From Acidimicrobiales bacterium (GTDB taxonomy: Bacteria > Actinomycetota > Acidimicrobiia > Acidimicrobiales > DASWIA01), in contig DASWIA010000047.1 of assembly GCA_036397895.1 (NCBI GenBank), positions 20,237 through 84,236 on the forward strand: a DNA stretch of 64,000 nt. Direction: 5' to 3'. A program made the position numbers and the translations under genes. The notes under the pieces were generated by a model. That model was not told where the DNA came from, made no database searches, and saw nothing but the letters and a program-made list of their open reading frames with translations. Below, piece after piece: positions 2,464-60,848 of the stretch (positions within the stretch are counted from its first letter, which is position 1; every line of letters begins with the position of its first letter).

Positions 2464-3774
2464 TCAGGGGGCGGTGGAGGGGGGCAGGGGACGTCGTCGC
2501 ACCTTGGCGAAGAGTCTGTCGTGGCCACCCACCAGGTAGGAGAGCACGGCAAAGGTGGCGGCGCCGGCCACTACCACGAACCCGGCCCGCGCCGGCAGTG
2601 AGATGAGCACCGGCGGCACCGCGCCGATCACCCAGGCCATCTGAAAGCGCGTCTCGAAGCGGGCGAACGAGCGGCCCTGGTTGGCGTCGGGCGCGTCGCG
2701 CTGCACGATGGCGTCGAACGCCGTCTTACCGCTGGCCGCGGCCACCCCCACCGAGGCAGCGAGCAGCGCCACCCACAGCCGGCCGCCGTTGAAGGCAGCC
2801 AGGCCACCCATGACCGACACCAGCAACAGGGCACCGACGAGGATCCGCTCCTCGCGCAGGCTCCGACGCAGCGGAGCGGCCAGCGCGGCGCCGCCCATGC
2901 CGCCGAGGGCACTGAGGGCGATGACCACCCCGAACCACCACGCCGGGGCTCCGTCGGCGCGCAGGAAGAAGGCGACGAAGAAGGTGAGGAAGCCGACGAT
3001 GCCGCGCATCAGGGCCATGGCCGACGCCGCCAGCAGGACACCGGCTCCCCGCAGCTCGGCTCGCTCCAGCTCATCTGTGGGCTTGGCAGCCACCACCACC
3101 TTGGGGATCTTCAATGCGGCCACGGCCGCGGCGGCGAAGGCCACCATGGCGAGGGCCAAGATCCACGTGGCGCCGCCAAGCCGGAGGATGGCGATGCCGG
3201 GGATCCCGATGGCGAAGCCGACCACCCCGCTGGTCACGGTGAGCTTGGAGTTGGCCTCGACGAGCTCGTCGTGGCTTCGGACCACGGTGGGCACCAGGGC
3301 GGAGCGCGCCACAGCATGACTCTTGGCCAGCACCAGCGCCGCGAAGGCCTCGGGGTAGAGCAGGAGACCATCGAGGTCATCGATGAGCAGCAGGCAAACG
3401 ATCGAGCGACCGAAGGCGGCGAGGATGATCATGAGCCGCCGCCCACCGCGGGTGGCATCGATCCACGGCCCGAGCAGCGGCGACACCAACGCGAACGGCG
3501 CCATGGTCAACACCAGGTACAACAGCACCTTCTCGCGGGCCGCTTCGGGGGACACATCGAAGAACACCGAGTTGGCCAGGGCCAAGGTGACCAGCGTGTC
3601 GCCCATGATCGACAGCGCATGGGCCCGCATCAGGCGGGTGAACGCCGACAGGCCTCCCGCTCGGCGAGGAGAGCGGAGCGGCTGCCACCCGGCACCTGCC
3701 TCTGGACGCACCCGGTCATCGTAGGTGAGGCTGGAGGTCAAGAACCGGCCCCCGAACGACGAAACTGAGGCCAT
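2464..3774 (-). CDS. MFS transporter
   Basis: Hydrophobic helices run along the whole length, and there is an MFS motif-A-like loop (GPWIDATRGGRR). The first ATG is at 3774 (MASVSSF); the track start at 3780 is a TTG. The start is uncertain, with Met at LMRAHAL as an alternative. Confidence 0.75.
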   Translation of the reverse strand: MASVSSFGGRFLTSSLTYDDRVRPEAGAGWQPLRSPRRAGGLSAFTRLMRAHALSIMGDTLVTLALANSVFFDVSPEAAREKVLLYLVLTMAPFALVSPLLGPWIDATRGGRRLMIILAAFGRSIVCLLLIDDLDGLLLYPEAFAALVLAKSHAVARSALVPTVVRSHDELVEANSKLTVTSGVVGFAIGIPGIAILRLGGATWILALAMVAFAAAAVAALKIPKVVVAAKPTDELERAELRGAGVLLAASAMALMRGIVGFLTFFVAFFLRADGAPAWWFGVVIALSALGGMGGAALAAPLRRSLREERILVGALLLVSVMGGLAAFNGGRLWVALLAASVGVAAASGKTAFDAIVQRDAPDANQGRSFARFETRFQMAWVIGAVPPVLISLPARAGFVVVAGAATFAVLSYLVGGHDRLFAKVRRRPLPPSTAP

Positions 3775-4477
3775 GTCCAACCTCTCGGATCTTCTCGGTG
3801 GTGTCTACGGCGACGACGGCGATGACGACACCAACGACAACGCCAACGCCGGCGATGACACGCCGACCACCTCCACTCCCCCCGACGCCGGGGATCCCGA
3901 AGAAGCCGCCGTACCCCCCGACGCCCCCGAGCAACCCTCATCTGAGGCCTCGCCGTCCGACCCAGTCCCCGACCCCGGCGACTCAGGCCCCGGCGACTCA
4001 GCGACGTCACCGGCGAGCGACGGACCGGCGTGGGCCAGCGACGACCGCCTCGACGCCGCCTTCGACGAATGGGCTCCAGGATCGCTGCCCGGGCACACCC
4101 GCGACGAGCGCGAGGAGCTGACGTCGGACATCGAAGACGAACCACGGGCGGTAACCGGGATCGAAGCCGCGTCCGATGCGGCGGCCGCCGCCGGATCAGG
4201 CGTGTCGGGTGATCCCACAACCGCGCCGTCTCCCCCCGCGGTGGAGATCGGCGAAGCACTCACTATCGACCGTTCGGCTCCTGACGCTGGTGCCTCACCC
4301 GATGATGCGGTCACCGTGGCCGGCGTAGGGTCGCTTCCCTACGACGAGCCGTCCGAGCCGGCGGCGTCGACAGCCCCCGAGCCGACCGTGCCGGCGACGA
4401 AGTGGCAGCGATCCGACGACGACATCATCCCCCACGGCGGCGTGGGCGGGATCTTGGCCCGGCTGCTGGGTCGCTGA
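3773..4477 (+). CDS. Hypothetical acidic Asp/Pro/Ser-rich protein
   Basis: ORF 3725..4477, with ATG at 3773 (MSNLSDLLGG). G/C-rich third positions are sustained, the composition is low-complexity, and I recognise no motif. Its ATG overlaps the divergent MFS ATG within a CATG at 3772-3775, so at least one of the two starts may be wrong. Confidence 0.45.
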   Translation: MSNLSDLLGGVYGDDGDDDTNDNANAGDDTPTTSTPPDAGDPEEAAVPPDAPEQPSSEASPSDPVPDPGDSGPGDSATSPASDGPAWASDDRLDAAFDEWAPGSLPGHTRDEREELTSDIEDEPRAVTGIEAASDAAAAAGSGVSGDPTTAPSPPAVEIGEALTIDRSAPDAGASPDDAVTVAGVGSLPYDEPSEPAASTAPEPTVPATKWQRSDDDIIPHGGVGGILARLLGR

Positions 4478-4507
4478 ACCAGGTCGCTGAACCAGGTCGC
4501 TGAACCA
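4469..4507. repeat. Perfect 13-bp tandem repeat x3 (GGTCGCTGAACCA) starting in the last codons of CDS 3773..4477
   Basis: Copies lie at 4469-4481, 4482-4494 and 4495-4507. TGA occurs at 4475, 4488 and 4501, which puts one in each of the three frames. The first TGA is the real stop. Confidence 0.95.
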
Positions 4508-4508
4508 C

Positions 4509-5210
4509 TCAGGCGGACGGGACCTGGTACTTGTAGCCGAGGCCGCGGATCGTCACGATCCGCTCGGGATGTGACGGATCGCGTTCGACCTTGGCCCGAA
4601 GTCGCTTGATGTGCACGTCGAGCGTCTTGGTGTCGCCCACGTAGTCGCTGCCCCAGACGCGGTCGATGAGCGTGTCGCGGGTGAGGACCCGGCCGGCGTG
4701 GTCGAGGAGCAGTGTGAGCAGCTCGAACTCCTTGAGCGGCAGCTGCACTTCTTCACCGCGGATGGTGACCTCGTGTCGTTCGACGTCGACCCGGACGTCG
4801 CCGACGGCCACCACGTCGACCGACGGAGCGGCGCGCTCGGACGGAGCCCGCCGGAGGACCGCTCGCATGCGGGCCACCAGCTCGCGCAGGCGGTAGGGCT
4901 TGGTGACGTAGTCGTCGGCACCCACCTCGAGCCCCACCACGGTGTCGACCTCGGAGCCTCGGGCAGTGACCATGATGATGGGGACCTTCGACGACTTGCG
5001 GATCTCGCGGCACACGTCGATGCCGCTCACGTTGGGCAGCATGACATCGAGGAGAACGAGGTCGGGACGGAGGGCGTCGAACATGGTGAGGGCTTCGGAG
5101 CCGTCACGGGCGATGTGGATGCGGAACCCTTCCCGGCGGAGACCGATCTGGAGCGCCTCGAGGAAGCTCTCCTCGTCTTCGACCACCAAGACGCTGGGGC
5201 CGTCTGCCAT
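4509..5210 (-). CDS. OmpR-family response regulator (RegX3/PhoP-like, phosphate two-component system)
   Basis: The receiver domain shows VLVVEDEESF and LVLLDVMLP. The C-terminus is a winged helix (LTRDTLIDRVWG...TLDVHIKRLRAKV). It sits directly downstream of the histidine kinase and the pst-phoU genes. Confidence 0.9.
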   Translation of the reverse strand: MADGPSVLVVEDEESFLEALQIGLRREGFRIHIARDGSEALTMFDALRPDLVLLDVMLPNVSGIDVCREIRKSSKVPIIMVTARGSEVDTVVGLEVGADDYVTKPYRLRELVARMRAVLRRAPSERAAPSVDVVAVGDVRVDVERHEVTIRGEEVQLPLKEFELLTLLLDHAGRVLTRDTLIDRVWGSDYVGDTKTLDVHIKRLRAKVERDPSHPERIVTIRGLGYKYQVPSA

Positions 5211-13542: not shown

Positions 13543-14073
13543 TCAGCCGGCAGGAGCGTCGTCTTCGGGCGACTCGGCGCTGGGTGGTGCCGGCGCCACG
13601 TCGGCAGTGCCGTCAGCCGTCTGGTCGGCGGCAGCGCTGCTGGCGGTCTGATCGGCGGCAGTGTCGTCACCGGTCTGGTCGGCGGCGGTGCCGCTGGCGA
13701 CGGGGGCCGGCGCCACCGTGACCGGCGGCGGCGCGGCAGCCGGCTCGCCTTCCTCTGGGTAGCCGAGATCCCATTCGAGCAGGATGCGCTCGCGCTCGGC
13801 GTCGCGCACGCAGCGCTCCCGGTTGCGCCGGAATTGAGGATCGAATGGCGGCAGCAGCAGCAGGCGGGCCATGGCACGGGTGCGGAACTCGTCGATGAGG
13901 CGCCCATCGCCAAAGTCGGAGTGCACCTCCCAGTGCGGCGCGGTGGGGCCGACGTAGACGATGCGGGCATGCGCCACGGGGGGGAGATTCTCGACGACCT
14001 CGGTGGGGTAGTGGGCCACGATCGCTCCTGGTGGGCGGGGTTGGGCGCCCGAGGATAGTGGTCCGACCGTCAT
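13543..14073 (-). CDS. Hypothetical protein with a C-terminal AADQT-type repeat tail
   Basis: ATG at 14073 is preceded by GAGGTGAGGAG. The body (AHYPTEVVENLPPVAHARIVYVGPTAPHWEVH...) matches no family I recognise. The tail is encoded by the 27-bp repeats at 13617-13697. Confidence 0.55.
   Translation of the reverse strand: MTVGPLSSGAQPRPPGAIVAHYPTEVVENLPPVAHARIVYVGPTAPHWEVHSDFGDGRLIDEFRTRAMARLLLLPPFDPQFRRNRERCVRDAERERILLEWDLGYPEEGEPAAAPPPVTVAPAPVASGTAADQTGDDTAADQTASSAAADQTADGTADVAPAPPSAESPEDDAPAG
13617..13697. repeat. Imperfect 27-bp tandem repeat x3 inside CDS 13543..14073
   Basis: Units lie at 13617-13643, 13644-13670 and 13671-13697 (cCGTCTGGTCGGCGGC..., CGGTCTGATCGGCGGC..., CGGTCTGGTCGGCGGC...). 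They encode (T/A)AADQT-containing 9-aa repeats. Confidence 0.8.
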
Positions 14074-14857: not shown

Positions 14858-15685
14858 GTGCTGGAGTGCGTCGTCAACGTCAGCGAGGGCCTCGACCCAC
14901 AGGTGATCCGACTGCTGTCGTCGGCCGCCGGCGCTGACCTGTTGGACTGCCACGTGGATCCCCACCACCATCGCAGCGTGCTCACGCTGGTGGGCACCGA
15001 CAGCCCGCGGCGGGTGGCCACGGCCGCCGTCGACCACATCGATCTAGGTCGCCACCGTGGCGCCCACCCCCGCCTCGGGGCGATCGACGTGGTTCCGTTC
15101 GTGGCGCTCGATGGATCGACTCCCGCCGACGCCGCGCTGGCCGCCGACGAGTTCGCCCGGTGGATGAGCGATGAGCACGGCGTGCCGTGCTTCCGCTACC
15201 ACGCTCGCAGCCCGTCGCTTCCCGAGGTGCGCCGCAACGCCTTCCACGGGCGCGGTCCCGACACCGGGCCGGGCTCGCCTCACTCCACCGCCGGCGCCTG
15301 CGCTGTCGGGGACCGTGGGGTGCTGGTCGCTTTCAATGCCTGGCTGACCAGCCCCGACCCCGCTTCGGCACGCCGCGCCGCCGCTCGGGTGCGAGCCGAG
15401 ACCACCGAACGATTCGGTCACCAGGTCGTGCGGACGCTGGGAATGTCGGTGGGAGGCAGAGCCCAGCTGTCGATGAACCTCATCAAACCCGAGGTGTTCG
15501 GTCCCGCCGACGCCGCCGATGCCGCTGAGCGGGCAGCACCGGTGGCCCGCTACGAGCTGGTGGGGCTGGTGCCCGCCACCGTGCTCACCGCAGTGCCGCC
15601 GCACCGGTGGAGCCGGCTCGACCTGGGGTGGAGCTGCACCATCGAGGCCCGTCTGGCCGCCCGCTCACGTCGCGGCGCCACCTGA
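14858..15685 (+). CDS. Glutamate formimidoyltransferase-like protein (FTCD N-terminal domain)
   Basis: GTG start. The N-terminal motif ECVVNVSEG is typical of formiminotransferases (ECVPNFSEG type). At 275 aa, there is no cyclodeaminase domain. Confidence 0.65.
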   Translation: MLECVVNVSEGLDPQVIRLLSSAAGADLLDCHVDPHHHRSVLTLVGTDSPRRVATAAVDHIDLGRHRGAHPRLGAIDVVPFVALDGSTPADAALAADEFARWMSDEHGVPCFRYHARSPSLPEVRRNAFHGRGPDTGPGSPHSTAGACAVGDRGVLVAFNAWLTSPDPASARRAAARVRAETTERFGHQVVRTLGMSVGGRAQLSMNLIKPEVFGPADAADAAERAAPVARYELVGLVPATVLTAVPPHRWSRLDLGWSCTIEARLAARSRRGAT

Positions 15686-15693
15686 CGGATTCC

Positions 15694-15730
15694 GGCGATC
15701 TGTTCAGGCGATCTGTTCAGGCGATCTGGA
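15694..15730. repeat. 13-bp tandem repeat, about 2.8 copies (GGCGATCTGTTCA), anchored on the stop of whiB-like CDS 15717..16004
   Basis: Copies lie at 15694-15706 and 15707-15719, with a partial copy at 15720-15730 inside the CDS. Minus-strand TGAs occur at 15719-15717 (the real stop) and 15706-15704. The next position downstream (15693-15691) reads GGA. Confidence 0.9.
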
Positions 15731-22854: not shown

Positions 22855-23018
22855 CGCCCCAACGCTAACCCTCCCCGCGGCTCCCACCCTGTCGGCGCGT
22901 CGACCCACCCCCGTTGCCCGGCCGTCCACTACACCTCGTCTACACCTCGTCCGGCAGGTTGGCGCGCTCTGACCTCGCTCCGAGGTCGGCGCGGATCGAC
23001 CACTACCCTTCCTCGCCC

Positions 23019-25232: not shown

Positions 25233-25640
25233 TCACTCGTCGACCACGATCAGCTCGACGTCGAGGGCCCGGTCGGTGTCGAGGGCCCGGCGGTCCCGGG
25301 TGAGAAGCGGGCGACCGTGTACGGCGGCGGCGTAGCCGACGAGCGCGTCGTAGACCGATCCACCCGCGATGCCAAGGTGGGGCAGGAGATCGGCCAGCCG
25401 GCGCGCTTCACGCGCGCCGAGGAACTCGGTCTCGGGAAAGTCATGCTCCAGCAACCGATGGACCTCGGTGACCGGACGACGGGCGGCACCGGGCAGGCGG
25501 GTCAGAACTGACATGGTCTCGAACCAGGCGTGACCGGCCAGACCGAGGCGCCGCCGCCCAACCCGCCGCGACACCGCGTCGTGGCCGGAGTGGTCGGCAA
25601 CTACGAGGGCCACAGCCGCACTGGTGTCGAGCAAGATCAT
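25233..25640 (-). CDS. vapC: Type II toxin, PIN-domain ribonuclease VapC
   Basis: The N-terminus MILLDTSAAVAL carries the conserved Asp. The size is PIN-typical (135 aa), and the ATG overlaps the antitoxin stop (ATGA at 25637-25640). Confidence 0.85.
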   Translation of the reverse strand: MILLDTSAAVALVVADHSGHDAVSRRVGRRRLGLAGHAWFETMSVLTRLPGAARRPVTEVHRLLEHDFPETEFLGAREARRLADLLPHLGIAGGSVYDALVGYAAAVHGRPLLTRDRRALDTDRALDVELIVVDE

Positions 25641-25870
25641 CGCCGGTCGGCGTCCCGCAACGATCGCACCAGGTCGTCGTCGATCGGTTCGCCGCTGCTC
25701 GGGATCACGAGCCGGCCGCCTCGATCGGCGAGTCCGTGTCCGGCGATGGGCTCGATGCGCACACCACTGCCGTCGAGCGTCACCTCGACGAGGCCCTCCT
25801 CGAGCCCGATGGCATCTCGTAACGCCTTGGGGATCACCAACCGGCCCGCCTTGTCGATCCCCGTCTTCAT
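25637..25870 (-). CDS. vapB: Type II antitoxin, AbrB/SpoVT-type VapB
   Basis: 77 aa, containing MKTGIDKAGRLVIPKALRDAIGL (swapped-hairpin AbrB-type DNA-binding motif). It is translationally coupled to vapC. Confidence 0.85.
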   Translation of the reverse strand: MKTGIDKAGRLVIPKALRDAIGLEEGLVEVTLDGSGVRIEPIAGHGLADRGGRLVIPSSGEPIDDDLVRSLRDADRR

Positions 25871-25952
25871 GCCATCACACTACCATTCAGATCCCATTCT
25901 CGATCCATCATCCATCCATCTCACATCTATCTAACTTCCATCTCACGACTCG
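25871..25952 (-). promoter_or_regulatory. G-depleted, AT-richer tract with seven CCAT[CT] repeats abutting the vapB start
   Basis: The plus strand has only two G residues between 25872 and 25946. CCATC occurs at 25872, 25905, 25912, 25916 and 25938, and CCATT at 25883 and 25894. On the vapB strand these read as GATGG/AATGG. It is a candidate VapBC operator/promoter. Confidence 0.4.
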
Positions 25953-26043
25953 TTGTCCACGGCCGCCTTCTTCGCACCTCGGCGACTAGATGCTCCGGGC
26001 TTGGTCGCACCGTGTTCGCCCCTGCTGGTGGCTGAATGTCAGG

Positions 26044-56511: not shown

Positions 56512-57675
56512 TCAGGACCCCATCCCGATGCCTTGGCTGCGCTGGAGGCTCTTGCCTTCGGTCTGGAGCGCGGGCGCCACCATGACCTCGGCCTTCTGGA
56601 ACTCCTTCACCGACTCGTAACCACACGTGGACATCGAGGTGCGGAGGGCACCGAAGAGGTTGAGCCGACCGTCGTTCTCGTGGGCGGGTCCCACCAGGAT
56701 CTCTTCGAGCGTTCCCCGGACGCCCACCTCGACCCGTGCGCCGCGCGGCAGCGTGGGATGGAAGGTGGCCATTCCCCAGTGGTAGCCGCGGCCGGGGGCC
56801 TCAACGGCAGCGGCGAGGGGGGAGCCGATCATCACCGCGTCGGCACCGCAGGCGATGGCTTTGGCAACGTCGCCACCGGTGCCCATTCCGCCATCGGCGA
56901 TGACGTGGACGTAGACGCCGGTCTCGTCGAGGTGACGCATCCGTGCCCCGGCCGCGTCGGCGATGGCGGTGGCCTGGGGCACACCGATGCCGAGCACACC
57001 GCGGCTGGTGCAGGCGTGACCGGGACCGACGCCGACGAGGATGCCGACGGCACCGGTGCGCATGAGGTGCAGCGCAGCCTGATAGCTGGCACACCCACCG
57101 ACGATGCAGGGGATGTCGAGCTCTCGGATGAACTTCTTCAGGTTCAACGGCTCACGCGTCTTCGACACGTGCTCGGCCGAGACGACGGTGCCCTGGATGA
57201 CCAACAGGTCGAGCTCGGCGGCGATGATGGCGGGTGCGAAGTGCTCGGTGCGAGGCGGCGTGACCGACGCGCAGCTGACCACGCCTGCATCCTTGATCTC
57301 CCGGATGCGCCGGGTGACGAGATCGAGGTCGACGTCTCGGGTGTAGATGTCCTGCATCCGCAGTGTGGCCTTCTCGGGCGGAAGCTCGGCGATCTCGGCC
57401 AGGAGCGCGTCGGGGTCCTCGTAGCGGGTCCAGAGACCCTCGAGGTTCAGCACACCGACGCCACCGATGCGGCCGATCTCGATGGCCGTGGCCGGGCTGA
57501 TGACCCCGTCCATGGCCGCGCCCATCAACGGGAGATCGAAGGTGTAGGCGTCGATCTCCCAGGAGATGTCGACGTCCTCGGGATCTCGGGTGCGCCTGCT
57601 CGGCACGATGGCGATGTCGTCGAACCCATACGCCCGGCGACCAGACTTCCCGATGCCGATCTCGACCTCAGCCAC
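56512..57675 (-). CDS. GuaB3-family IMP dehydrogenase-related protein
   Basis: Begins MAEVEIGIGKSGRRAYGFDDIAIVPSRRTR and contains IADGGMGTGGDVAKA. At 387 aa with no CBS pair, it matches the GuaB3 type rather than GuaB2. Confidence 0.88.
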   Translation of the reverse strand: MAEVEIGIGKSGRRAYGFDDIAIVPSRRTRDPEDVDISWEIDAYTFDLPLMGAAMDGVISPATAIEIGRIGGVGVLNLEGLWTRYEDPDALLAEIAELPPEKATLRMQDIYTRDVDLDLVTRRIREIKDAGVVSCASVTPPRTEHFAPAIIAAELDLLVIQGTVVSAEHVSKTREPLNLKKFIRELDIPCIVGGCASYQAALHLMRTGAVGILVGVGPGHACTSRGVLGIGVPQATAIADAAGARMRHLDETGVYVHVIADGGMGTGGDVAKAIACGADAVMIGSPLAAAVEAPGRGYHWGMATFHPTLPRGARVEVGVRGTLEEILVGPAHENDGRLNLFGALRTSMSTCGYESVKEFQKAEVMVAPALQTEGKSLQRSQGIGMGS

Positions 57676-57775
57676 AGGGGGGAACCTCCGGAAACTCGAC
57701 CCCTAAAGGGCTGAGTGTAGCCATGGCCTCCGACCGATCACGAACCCCTCGGCATGCCGGTGTGGAGCCCTGGGC

Positions 57776-57812
57776 ACGGTCAGGACACACGGTCAGGACA
57801 CACGGTCAGGAC
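57776..57812. repeat. 13-bp tandem repeat, about 2.8 copies (ACGGTCAGGACAC), anchored on the stop of CDS 57806..58195
   Basis: Copies lie at 57776-57788 and 57789-57801, with a partial copy at 57802-57812. Minus-strand TGAs occur at 57808-57806 (the real stop), 57795-57793 and 57782-57780, giving one in each frame. Confidence 0.95.
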
Positions 57813-58195
57813 TTGAGGACGTTCAGGATCTGGCGGGCCACCGCCCCCGACATCTCGTAGCGCACCTGCTTGCGGGCATCGCGCACCTTGGTGAGGACGC
57901 TGCCACCGGTGAGCTGTTCGACCGAGTCCAAGCCGGCCACCACCGCTTCCTTGGAGATGTCCGTGGCCCGGTAGCCCATCGAGGTGAGACCCTTGATGAT
58001 GTCGTTCTGAGCGACAGGGCCGGGCGCGGCGGTGGCGAGCACGCGAAGTGCGTCCTTGGTGATCTCGGCGGCCTGTTCGACCGCCTCGACCGGCGTGAGA
58101 TGGCCTCCGGGCGCTCCCTCGACCGATGCCAGCCAGCGCCGAACCTTCAGCACGATCTCCTGGTGGGACTCGCCGTCGAACGTCAACGTGGCCAT
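57806..58195 (-). CDS. Hypothetical protein (129 aa)
   Basis: ATG at 58195 (MATLTFDGESHQEIVLKVRRWL). The coding bias is good, but I recognise no motif. Confidence 0.55.
   Translation of the reverse strand: MATLTFDGESHQEIVLKVRRWLASVEGAPGGHLTPVEAVEQAAEITKDALRVLATAAPGPVAQNDIIKGLTSMGYRATDISKEAVVAGLDSVEQLTGGSVLTKVRDARKQVRYEMSGAVARQILNVLKS

Positions 58196-59177: not shown

Positions 59178-60848
<1,671 letters not shown>

Follow-up and report, generated by a model that had tools for sequence, protein, structure and literature searches.

Three blunt 13-bp tandem triplications spanning stop codons in an Acidimicrobiales genome

How do three unrelated 13-bp sequences come to stand in three tandem copies each, every time across the 3' end of a gene, within 64 kb of one bacterial genome? 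The stretch of DNA analysed here, called the window, is 64 kb long and belongs to a high-GC (68%) member of the Acidimicrobiales. A preliminary description had singled out one such array, had pointed to two more of the same architecture, and had offered as explanations a mutational mechanism, the footprint of a DNA transaction, an all-frame translational stop module or an array of protein-binding direct repeats. In the analysis reported here, the arrays were detected by Tandem Repeats Finder and by a separate perfect-repeat scan of the window, and were compared with independent assemblies of the same species and with tandem arrays in related genomes.

The arrays and the gene ends that they overlap

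The three arrays and their neighbouring genes are the following.

4469-4507, plus strand: locus 1 array, GGTCGCTGAACCA x 3.0, 0 mismatches, no flanking microhomology
3725 or 3773 to 4477, plus strand: acidic, proline-rich ORF, 250 aa, or 234 aa from the ATG at 3773
4509-5210, minus strand: gene for a RegX3-like OmpR-family response regulator, convergent with the acidic, proline-rich ORF
15690-15728, minus strand: locus 2 array, TTCAGGCGATCTG x 3.0, one mismatch
14858-15685, plus strand: FTCD_N-family gene, convergent with the WhiB-family gene
15717-16004/16025, minus strand: WhiB-family gene, 95 aa in the ENA annotation
57775-57812, minus strand: locus 3 array, CACGGTCAGGACA x 2.92, or 3.0 with one terminal mismatch
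57806-58195, minus strand: gene for a protein of 129 aa, function not assigned, no Pfam hit
56512-57675, minus strand: GuaB3-family gene, downstream of locus 3 and co-directional

The locus 1 unit forms a perfect triplicate of exactly 39 bp, the period being interrupted by the flanking base on either side. The last codons and the TGA (4475-4477) of the acidic, proline-rich ORF lie inside copy 1, and each of the three TGAs (4475, 4488 and 4501) is in a reading frame of its own; on these points the preliminary description was accurate. The stop codon of the RegX3-like gene (4509-4511) is found 1 nt past the array. The two convergent stops are now 31 bp apart, versus 5 bp in the reconstructed single-copy state, and the junction is located at the head of a senX3-phoU-pstBACS-ppk cluster. 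A search among 5.8 billion proteins yielded no homologue of the acidic, proline-rich ORF beyond its own cluster, and there was no Pfam hit; it is either an orphan gene or one that encodes a fast-evolving disordered protein. The third-position GC of this ORF is 0.79, matching the other predicted genes.

The second array had been placed at 15694-15730. Its 13-bp period, its three copies and its overlap with a stop codon stand, but its extent had to be corrected to 15690-15728 and the stop is on the minus strand. Read on that strand, it consists of CAGATCGCCTGAA twice, followed by CAGATCGCCGGAA; the mismatch is located in the copy at 15690-15702 (TTCCGG), and the perfect part covers 15694-15728. 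The stop of the WhiB-family gene (15717-15719) lies within the first copy in minus-strand reading, and the stop of the FTCD_N-family gene (15683-15685) precedes the array by 4 nt. The gap between these convergent stops is 31 bp, again versus 5 bp in the reconstructed single-copy state. In the distal copy the TGA has become GGA, which leaves locus 2 with two TGAs only. The general claim that the arrays place TGA in all three frames is thus correct for loci 1 and 3 and wrong for locus 2.

For the third array, previously given as 57776-57812, the 13-bp unit, the approximately three copies and the overlap with a stop were recovered, with the start corrected to 57775 and the stop assigned to the minus strand. 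In minus-strand reading the copies are GTCCTGACCGTGT, GTCCTGACCGTGT and GTCCTGACCGTG(C), and TGA is present in all three frames. The stop of the 129-aa gene (57806-57808) lies within the first copy. The array is positioned 100-137 nt upstream of the guaB3 start, and the junction is not convergent.

These three arrays are the only perfect tandem repeats in the 64-kb window with a period of at least 10 bp and at least 2.5 copies. Each unit, allowing at most one mismatch, is found in the window only inside its own array, and three unit matches were not obtained in any of 100 shuffles. A perfect array of three 13-bp copies amounts to 26 consecutive self-matches at lag 13, for which about 3e-10 occurrences are expected per 64 kb from base composition. 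These numbers bear out the suspicion that such arrays exceed chance, which they exclude as an explanation, and it also proved right that the units are unrelated to one another, that they do not represent a dispersed element and that all three arrays are at gene 3' ends. No shared motif was detected among the three units when aligned on the TGA. A motif common to loci 1 and 2, CTGAAC, was discarded, because base composition predicts about 20 occurrences per window. A dispersed intergenic repeat family of the REP/BIME, MIRU or TAACTGA type was likewise rejected, as the same unit does not recur at many loci.

All three arrays are exact multiples of 13, with the bases on both sides breaking the period, and no flanking microhomology was found at either side of any of them; for locus 3 this holds with the one terminal base taken as a substitution. 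The TGA begins 6, 9 and 4 nt from the unit start at loci 1-3, respectively. This lack of a fixed register argues against recognition of the stop codon and for a survival filter. No ORF is altered by the arrays and, because the stop codon sits in the first copy, no protein depends on the copy number. No further 13-bp array was encountered in the 14.4 kb beyond the window start, nor any two-copy 13-bp array in the 78.4 kb examined.

Several other repeats were observed in the window. A perfect 11-bp duplication, CTACACCTCGT x 2.09, occupies 22929-22951 in the 164 bp that separate a MoxR-like AAA gene from a divergent glycosyl hydrolase 2 gene, and is a recent small tandem duplication in a 5' region. 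At 25233-25960 on the minus strand, a PIN-like ORF (25233-25640) is accompanied by a small upstream ORF whose N-terminus resembles an AbrB-type antitoxin by eye, and the two look like a putative toxin-antitoxin pair. Beyond this pair the sequence becomes AT-richer and, immediately ahead of sdhA, contains a degenerate array of an 11-bp unit (ATCCATCTCAC x 4, 79% matches). Inside a 158-aa ORF without a Pfam hit, an imperfect repeat with a 27-bp unit (3.4 copies, 73% matches) occupies 13602-13693 and would encode a repeated peptide. Finally, a 9-bp repeat at 59187-59231 corresponds to the Gly-Gly-Met tail of GroEL and is ordinary.

Independent assemblies and the ancestral state

All three arrays, including the mismatch at locus 2, are present in contig k141_560713 of ENA assembly ERZ27256989, which is 78 kb long and 99.98-99.99% identical to the window. 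The locus 1 array was also found in JGI 3300054115, and the locus 3 array in two overlapping contigs of JGI 3300033417; across the ENA and JGI assemblies the identity to the window is 99.87-99.99%. At the assembly level, three copies were seen everywhere, i.e. for locus 1 in three assemblies, for locus 2 in two and for locus 3 in four contigs. Because three copies recur in independent metagenome assemblies of the same species, from three samples and two sources (ENA and JGI), an assembly or polishing artefact has a negligible probability. No variation in copy number was seen among the assemblies, so at this level the arrays do not behave as VNTRs, and the uniform copy number gives no sign of ongoing slippage. 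A VNTR or contingency locus was also rejected on the ground that a change in copy number alters neither reading frame nor promoter spacing. The ENA contig ends inside groEL, at approximately position 59851 of the window, where a paralogous groEL copy may have broken the assembly.

The two JGI 3300033417 contigs overlap across locus 3 (L163:108-146 and L169:4836-4874), one of them ending just after the array and the other beginning about 100 nt before it. They differ in the last base of copy 2 (57788-57800), which is T in L169 versus C in L163. This T/C point polymorphism segregates within one population. In copies 1 and 2 a G, the first base of the next copy, comes directly after this last base, and the T/C position suggests a mutable CpG-like site or conversion between copies. 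Each array carries between zero and two substitutions, in addition to the one base that is polymorphic within a population. By this measure the arrays appear to be young but not new.

No close relative outside the species (above 90% identity), from which the events at loci 1 and 2 could be dated, is present in the databases searched. In the search of 5.8 billion proteins with GuaB3, the identity drops from the species itself straight to 89%, and among the matches listed for the RegX3 homologue of the window, the best MAG representatives share 80-82% identity with it. The contig with the 89% identical GuaB3 (L164) has a single ...CGCTGACCGCCCCCAGG... (...CGC TGA CCGCCCCCAGG...) and no repeat past the stop orthologous to that of locus 3; the intergenic region aligns poorly. 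Based on this one divergent relative, the locus 3 array is probably derived, a conclusion that we regard as only moderately secure. For locus 1, the RegX3 junctions of other MAGs are too diverged to align. Relatives of at most 66% identity, from a polyphosphate kinase scan of metagenome contigs, contributed to the background described below and to the synteny at locus 2. In these distant relatives the FTCD_N and WhiB genes are convergent with gaps of -14 to +67 bp and without a 13-bp repeat. The arrays are probably recent, lineage-specific local triplications.

Tandem arrays in related genomes

A background of 2.12 Mb from 161 related loci, mostly Acidimicrobiia, was searched for comparable arrays, defined as perfect, with a period of at least 13 bp that is not a multiple of three. 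This yielded 21 arrays. Their periods are 16 bp (eight arrays), 14 bp (five) and 13 bp (one), the rest being singletons, and the sole period-13 array, from Nonomuraea, has 5.5 copies. At least 2.85 copies were found in six of the 21 arrays, and six of the 21 are without a partial extra copy. The stop codon of a long ORF with high GC3 is spanned by five of the 21, and shorter-period cases of the same kind exist. The period-16 arrays come from seven genomes (L003, L021, L046, L047, L103, L124 and L144), and their share hints that preferred duplication lengths exist more widely. Stop-spanning arrays in relatives have periods from 8 to 23 bp, as in the following.

L047:3169-3221: 16 bp x 3.3, TGA within the first copy and in each of the three frames
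L061:10712-10756: 8-bp TGA-containing unit in about six copies, located at the orthologous convergent junction directly behind the RegX3 stop
L126:8999-9048: 23 bp, stop codon in the first copy
L124:16700-16746: 22 bp, stop codon in the first copy
L041:6796-6823: 14 bp, stop codon in the first copy

Tandem duplication that includes a stop codon is thus a general architecture in these genomes and is not tied to period 13. Stop-spanning arrays are to be expected, because an insertion there leaves the protein intact and one inside an ORF would shift the frame. With these arrays in relatives, and with repeat-independent duplications already described in the literature (PMC6954433), the earlier statement that no described feature class matches the arrays was too strong. 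No report of 13-bp tandem repeats at stop codons was found in the literature searched.

The background also bears on whether the arrays are ordinary mini-arrays of the VNTR type produced by replication slippage, their shared period and three copies being a coincidence noticed post hoc. Such an origin is conceivable, and we consider it a minority possibility. It gains from the density of arrays here, which exceeds the background only about 4-fold (0.78 expected in 78.4 kb, P(3 or more) = 0.044), and from the frequency with which three or so copies, the lack of a partial extra copy and the overlap with a stop codon each occur in relatives. The shared period, on the other hand, fits poorly: the preliminary description had judged it unlikely to be chance, and with one period-13 array among the 21 comparable ones in 2.12 Mb of related genomes, three arrays of period 13 have a probability of about 1e-3 even when the post hoc choice of the period is allowed for. 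The form of the arrays is a second difficulty. Each of the six background arrays that reach about three copies or more (L046, L047, L072, L081, L124 and L026) carries a partial extra copy of at least 3 nt, which measures 3-7 nt in five of them and 22 nt in L026, so that arrays without such a partial copy are three of three here versus none of six in the multi-copy background. The share of stop-spanning arrays, three of three here, compares with the five of 21 given above. The three-copy number and the bluntness are each unremarkable alone; what is unusual is the shared period of 13, the blunt multi-copy form and the overlap with a stop codon in every array, for which about a quarter would be expected. 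The constant copy number among assemblies also speaks against slippage.

Mycobacterial MIRUs, known from MIRU-VNTR typing loci, occur in the senX3-regX3 region and form a dispersed family with units of 40-100 bp. The arrays resemble VNTR and MIRU loci in being short intergenic tandem arrays, and locus 1 adjoins a regX3 homologue. They differ in that the copy number of VNTRs is strain-variable, whereas here it is invariant among the assemblies and each 13-mer is unique.

Possible origins, functional readings and implications

Both the lack of microhomology and array lengths that are exact multiples of 13 speak against classical slippage between short direct repeats and for a homology-independent route. 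On balance, and with limited confidence, we favour the interpretation that the arrays are neutral scars of a lineage-specific, homology-independent duplication process; its enzymology, a 13-bp ruler and selective neutrality are what we infer. In such a process, a local 13-bp stretch would be copied head to tail twice per site without the use of pre-existing repeats, giving a 26-bp insertion in each of three independent events. A topoisomerase-I-type lesion would be one candidate route, and fill-in with end joining where nicks are closely spaced or a break is staggered would be another. A third copy could arise by a second event, or by slippage once two copies were present. The insertions would then persist because the unit holds the stop codon of the overlapped gene and ends before the neighbouring gene, with no protein altered.

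The recognition site of mycobacterial topoisomerase I is CGCTT; this motif was looked for and is contained in none of the three units. The length of 13 bp has several candidate sources in known processes, namely the excision patch of 12-13 nt left by UvrABC, the target duplications of 11-13 bp made by IS4-group elements and the length of primase primers.

The arrays were found to be local head-to-tail copies without microhomology, which is the form of a de novo, repeat-independent duplication. The closest described counterpart is the topA R168C mutator of Escherichia coli, in which de novo head-to-tail duplications of 2-19 bp arise in hotspots independently of repeats, and for which a 15-bp duplication is annotated as intergenic (+56/+105) in the supplement (PMC6954433). 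Shared with these events are the local head-to-tail copying, a length within the 2-19 bp range, the independence from pre-existing repeats and the occurrence at particular sites (PMC6954433). The topA R168C events are single and of varied length, in contrast to the arrays described here, which have the same length and three copies each, and no topoisomerase I variant or nickase is linked to this organism.

Several observations weigh against the neutral-scar interpretation. A generic process leaves unexplained why three events should share both a rare period and a copy number, and the 13-bp ruler is postulated. The missing two-copy 13-mer is odd for a stepwise history from one to two to three copies. 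A pure survival filter predicts that approximately a quarter to a third of the arrays span a stop, and three of three then has P ~0.01-0.03. Furthermore, slippage is not seen to be ongoing, the copy number being the same in every assembly.

A more specific variant is that the lineage has, or until recently had, a DNA transaction with a 13-bp ruler that prefers gene 3' ends and leaves blunt 13-bp triplications. We regard this as unlikely. Possible agents include an enzyme that makes paired nicks or staggered cuts, an activity of the integrase type, and an excision-repair patch (12-13 nt) that was misprocessed.

Somewhat less probable still are footprints of a mobile element or integrase with a 13-bp stagger, in which each insertion would duplicate 13 bp, excision followed by end joining would leave the duplicate in place, and two such cycles would give three copies. 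Target-site duplications of transposons are blunt direct repeats with a fixed length set by the staggered cut, and exact multiples of 13 with blunt ends and no microhomology are what such duplications would leave. IS4-group elements generate duplications of 11-13 bp, and casposons generate duplications of 14-15 bp at gene 3' ends. The arrays depart from this pattern in having no element, three copies instead of two and no common target sequence. No transposase, integrase, inverted repeat or element remnant was found in the window and 14 kb beyond it, where all genes are housekeeping genes, and the units share no target motif. Exactly two cycles would be needed at each of three sites, and no two-copy footprint was seen.

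A selected function, be it as an all-frame stop module, as a spacer that widens the convergent gap from 5 to 31 bp or as a 3' UTR or regulatory element, is very improbable. The proposal of an all-frame translational stop module draws on loci 1 and 3, where every frame has a TGA, and was not sustained: locus 2 has two TGAs, and its frame +2 is open for 167 nt, compared with 26 nt in the single-copy state. In the reconstructed single-copy states, stops in the two remaining frames come within 106/71, 106/26 and 112/77 nt at loci 1-3, respectively. The window median for frame closure is 206 nt, later than in all three single-copy states, and as these frames were closed sooner than at a typical gene end of the window there was no special need for a stop module at these genes. 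Because 13 is 1 mod 3, the all-frame TGA is an arithmetic by-product and does not indicate a selected function.

The spacer idea rests on the same geometry of loci 1 and 2, where an ancestral convergent gap of 5 bp has become 31 bp, and a fixed copy number across all assemblies would suit any of the functional readings. Locus 3, however, is not convergent, and other tight convergent junctions of the window (gaps of 6 and 34 bp) are without an array. The suggestion of a protein-binding direct-repeat array fell with the finding that the three units share no motif; since the unit sequences are unrelated, no common binding partner is possible. Response-regulator direct-repeat binding sites were rejected for the same reason, the unit sequences being different.

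A described repeat with a proposed function is the TAACTGA heptamer of Beggiatoaceae, Cyanobacteria and Bacteroidetes, whose direct repeats occupy 169 sites, most of them a short way upstream of a start codon, and which was proposed to be a regulator binding site (PMC4679880). Both kinds of repeat are short and intergenic, have a unit length of 1 mod 3 and carry stop triplets in the unit, which places stops in all frames (PMC4679880), but there it is one fixed heptamer and here three unrelated 13-mers at gene 3' ends. RNA structure was not indicated either, as the fold z-scores of the arrays range from -1.6 to +0.9 on both strands, locus 1 showed neither a terminator nor a promoter pattern and there were no Rfam hits in the 64-kb window. 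An intrinsic terminator or structured RNA was accordingly rejected, there being no stable fold, terminator pattern (locus 1) or Rfam match.

How tandem repeats originate from non-repetitive sequence is still poorly understood. If there is no 13-bp ruler, the arrays illustrate how duplications that are not multiples of three persist at stop codons in compact, high-GC genomes with the protein intact, and how duplications that include the stop mimic an "all-frame stop" design without selection. If the ruler is real, the arrays would constitute a previously undescribed, lineage-specific mutational footprint, left in nature by one particular process of nick or break repair, and would allow that process to be read from the genomes of uncultured bacteria.
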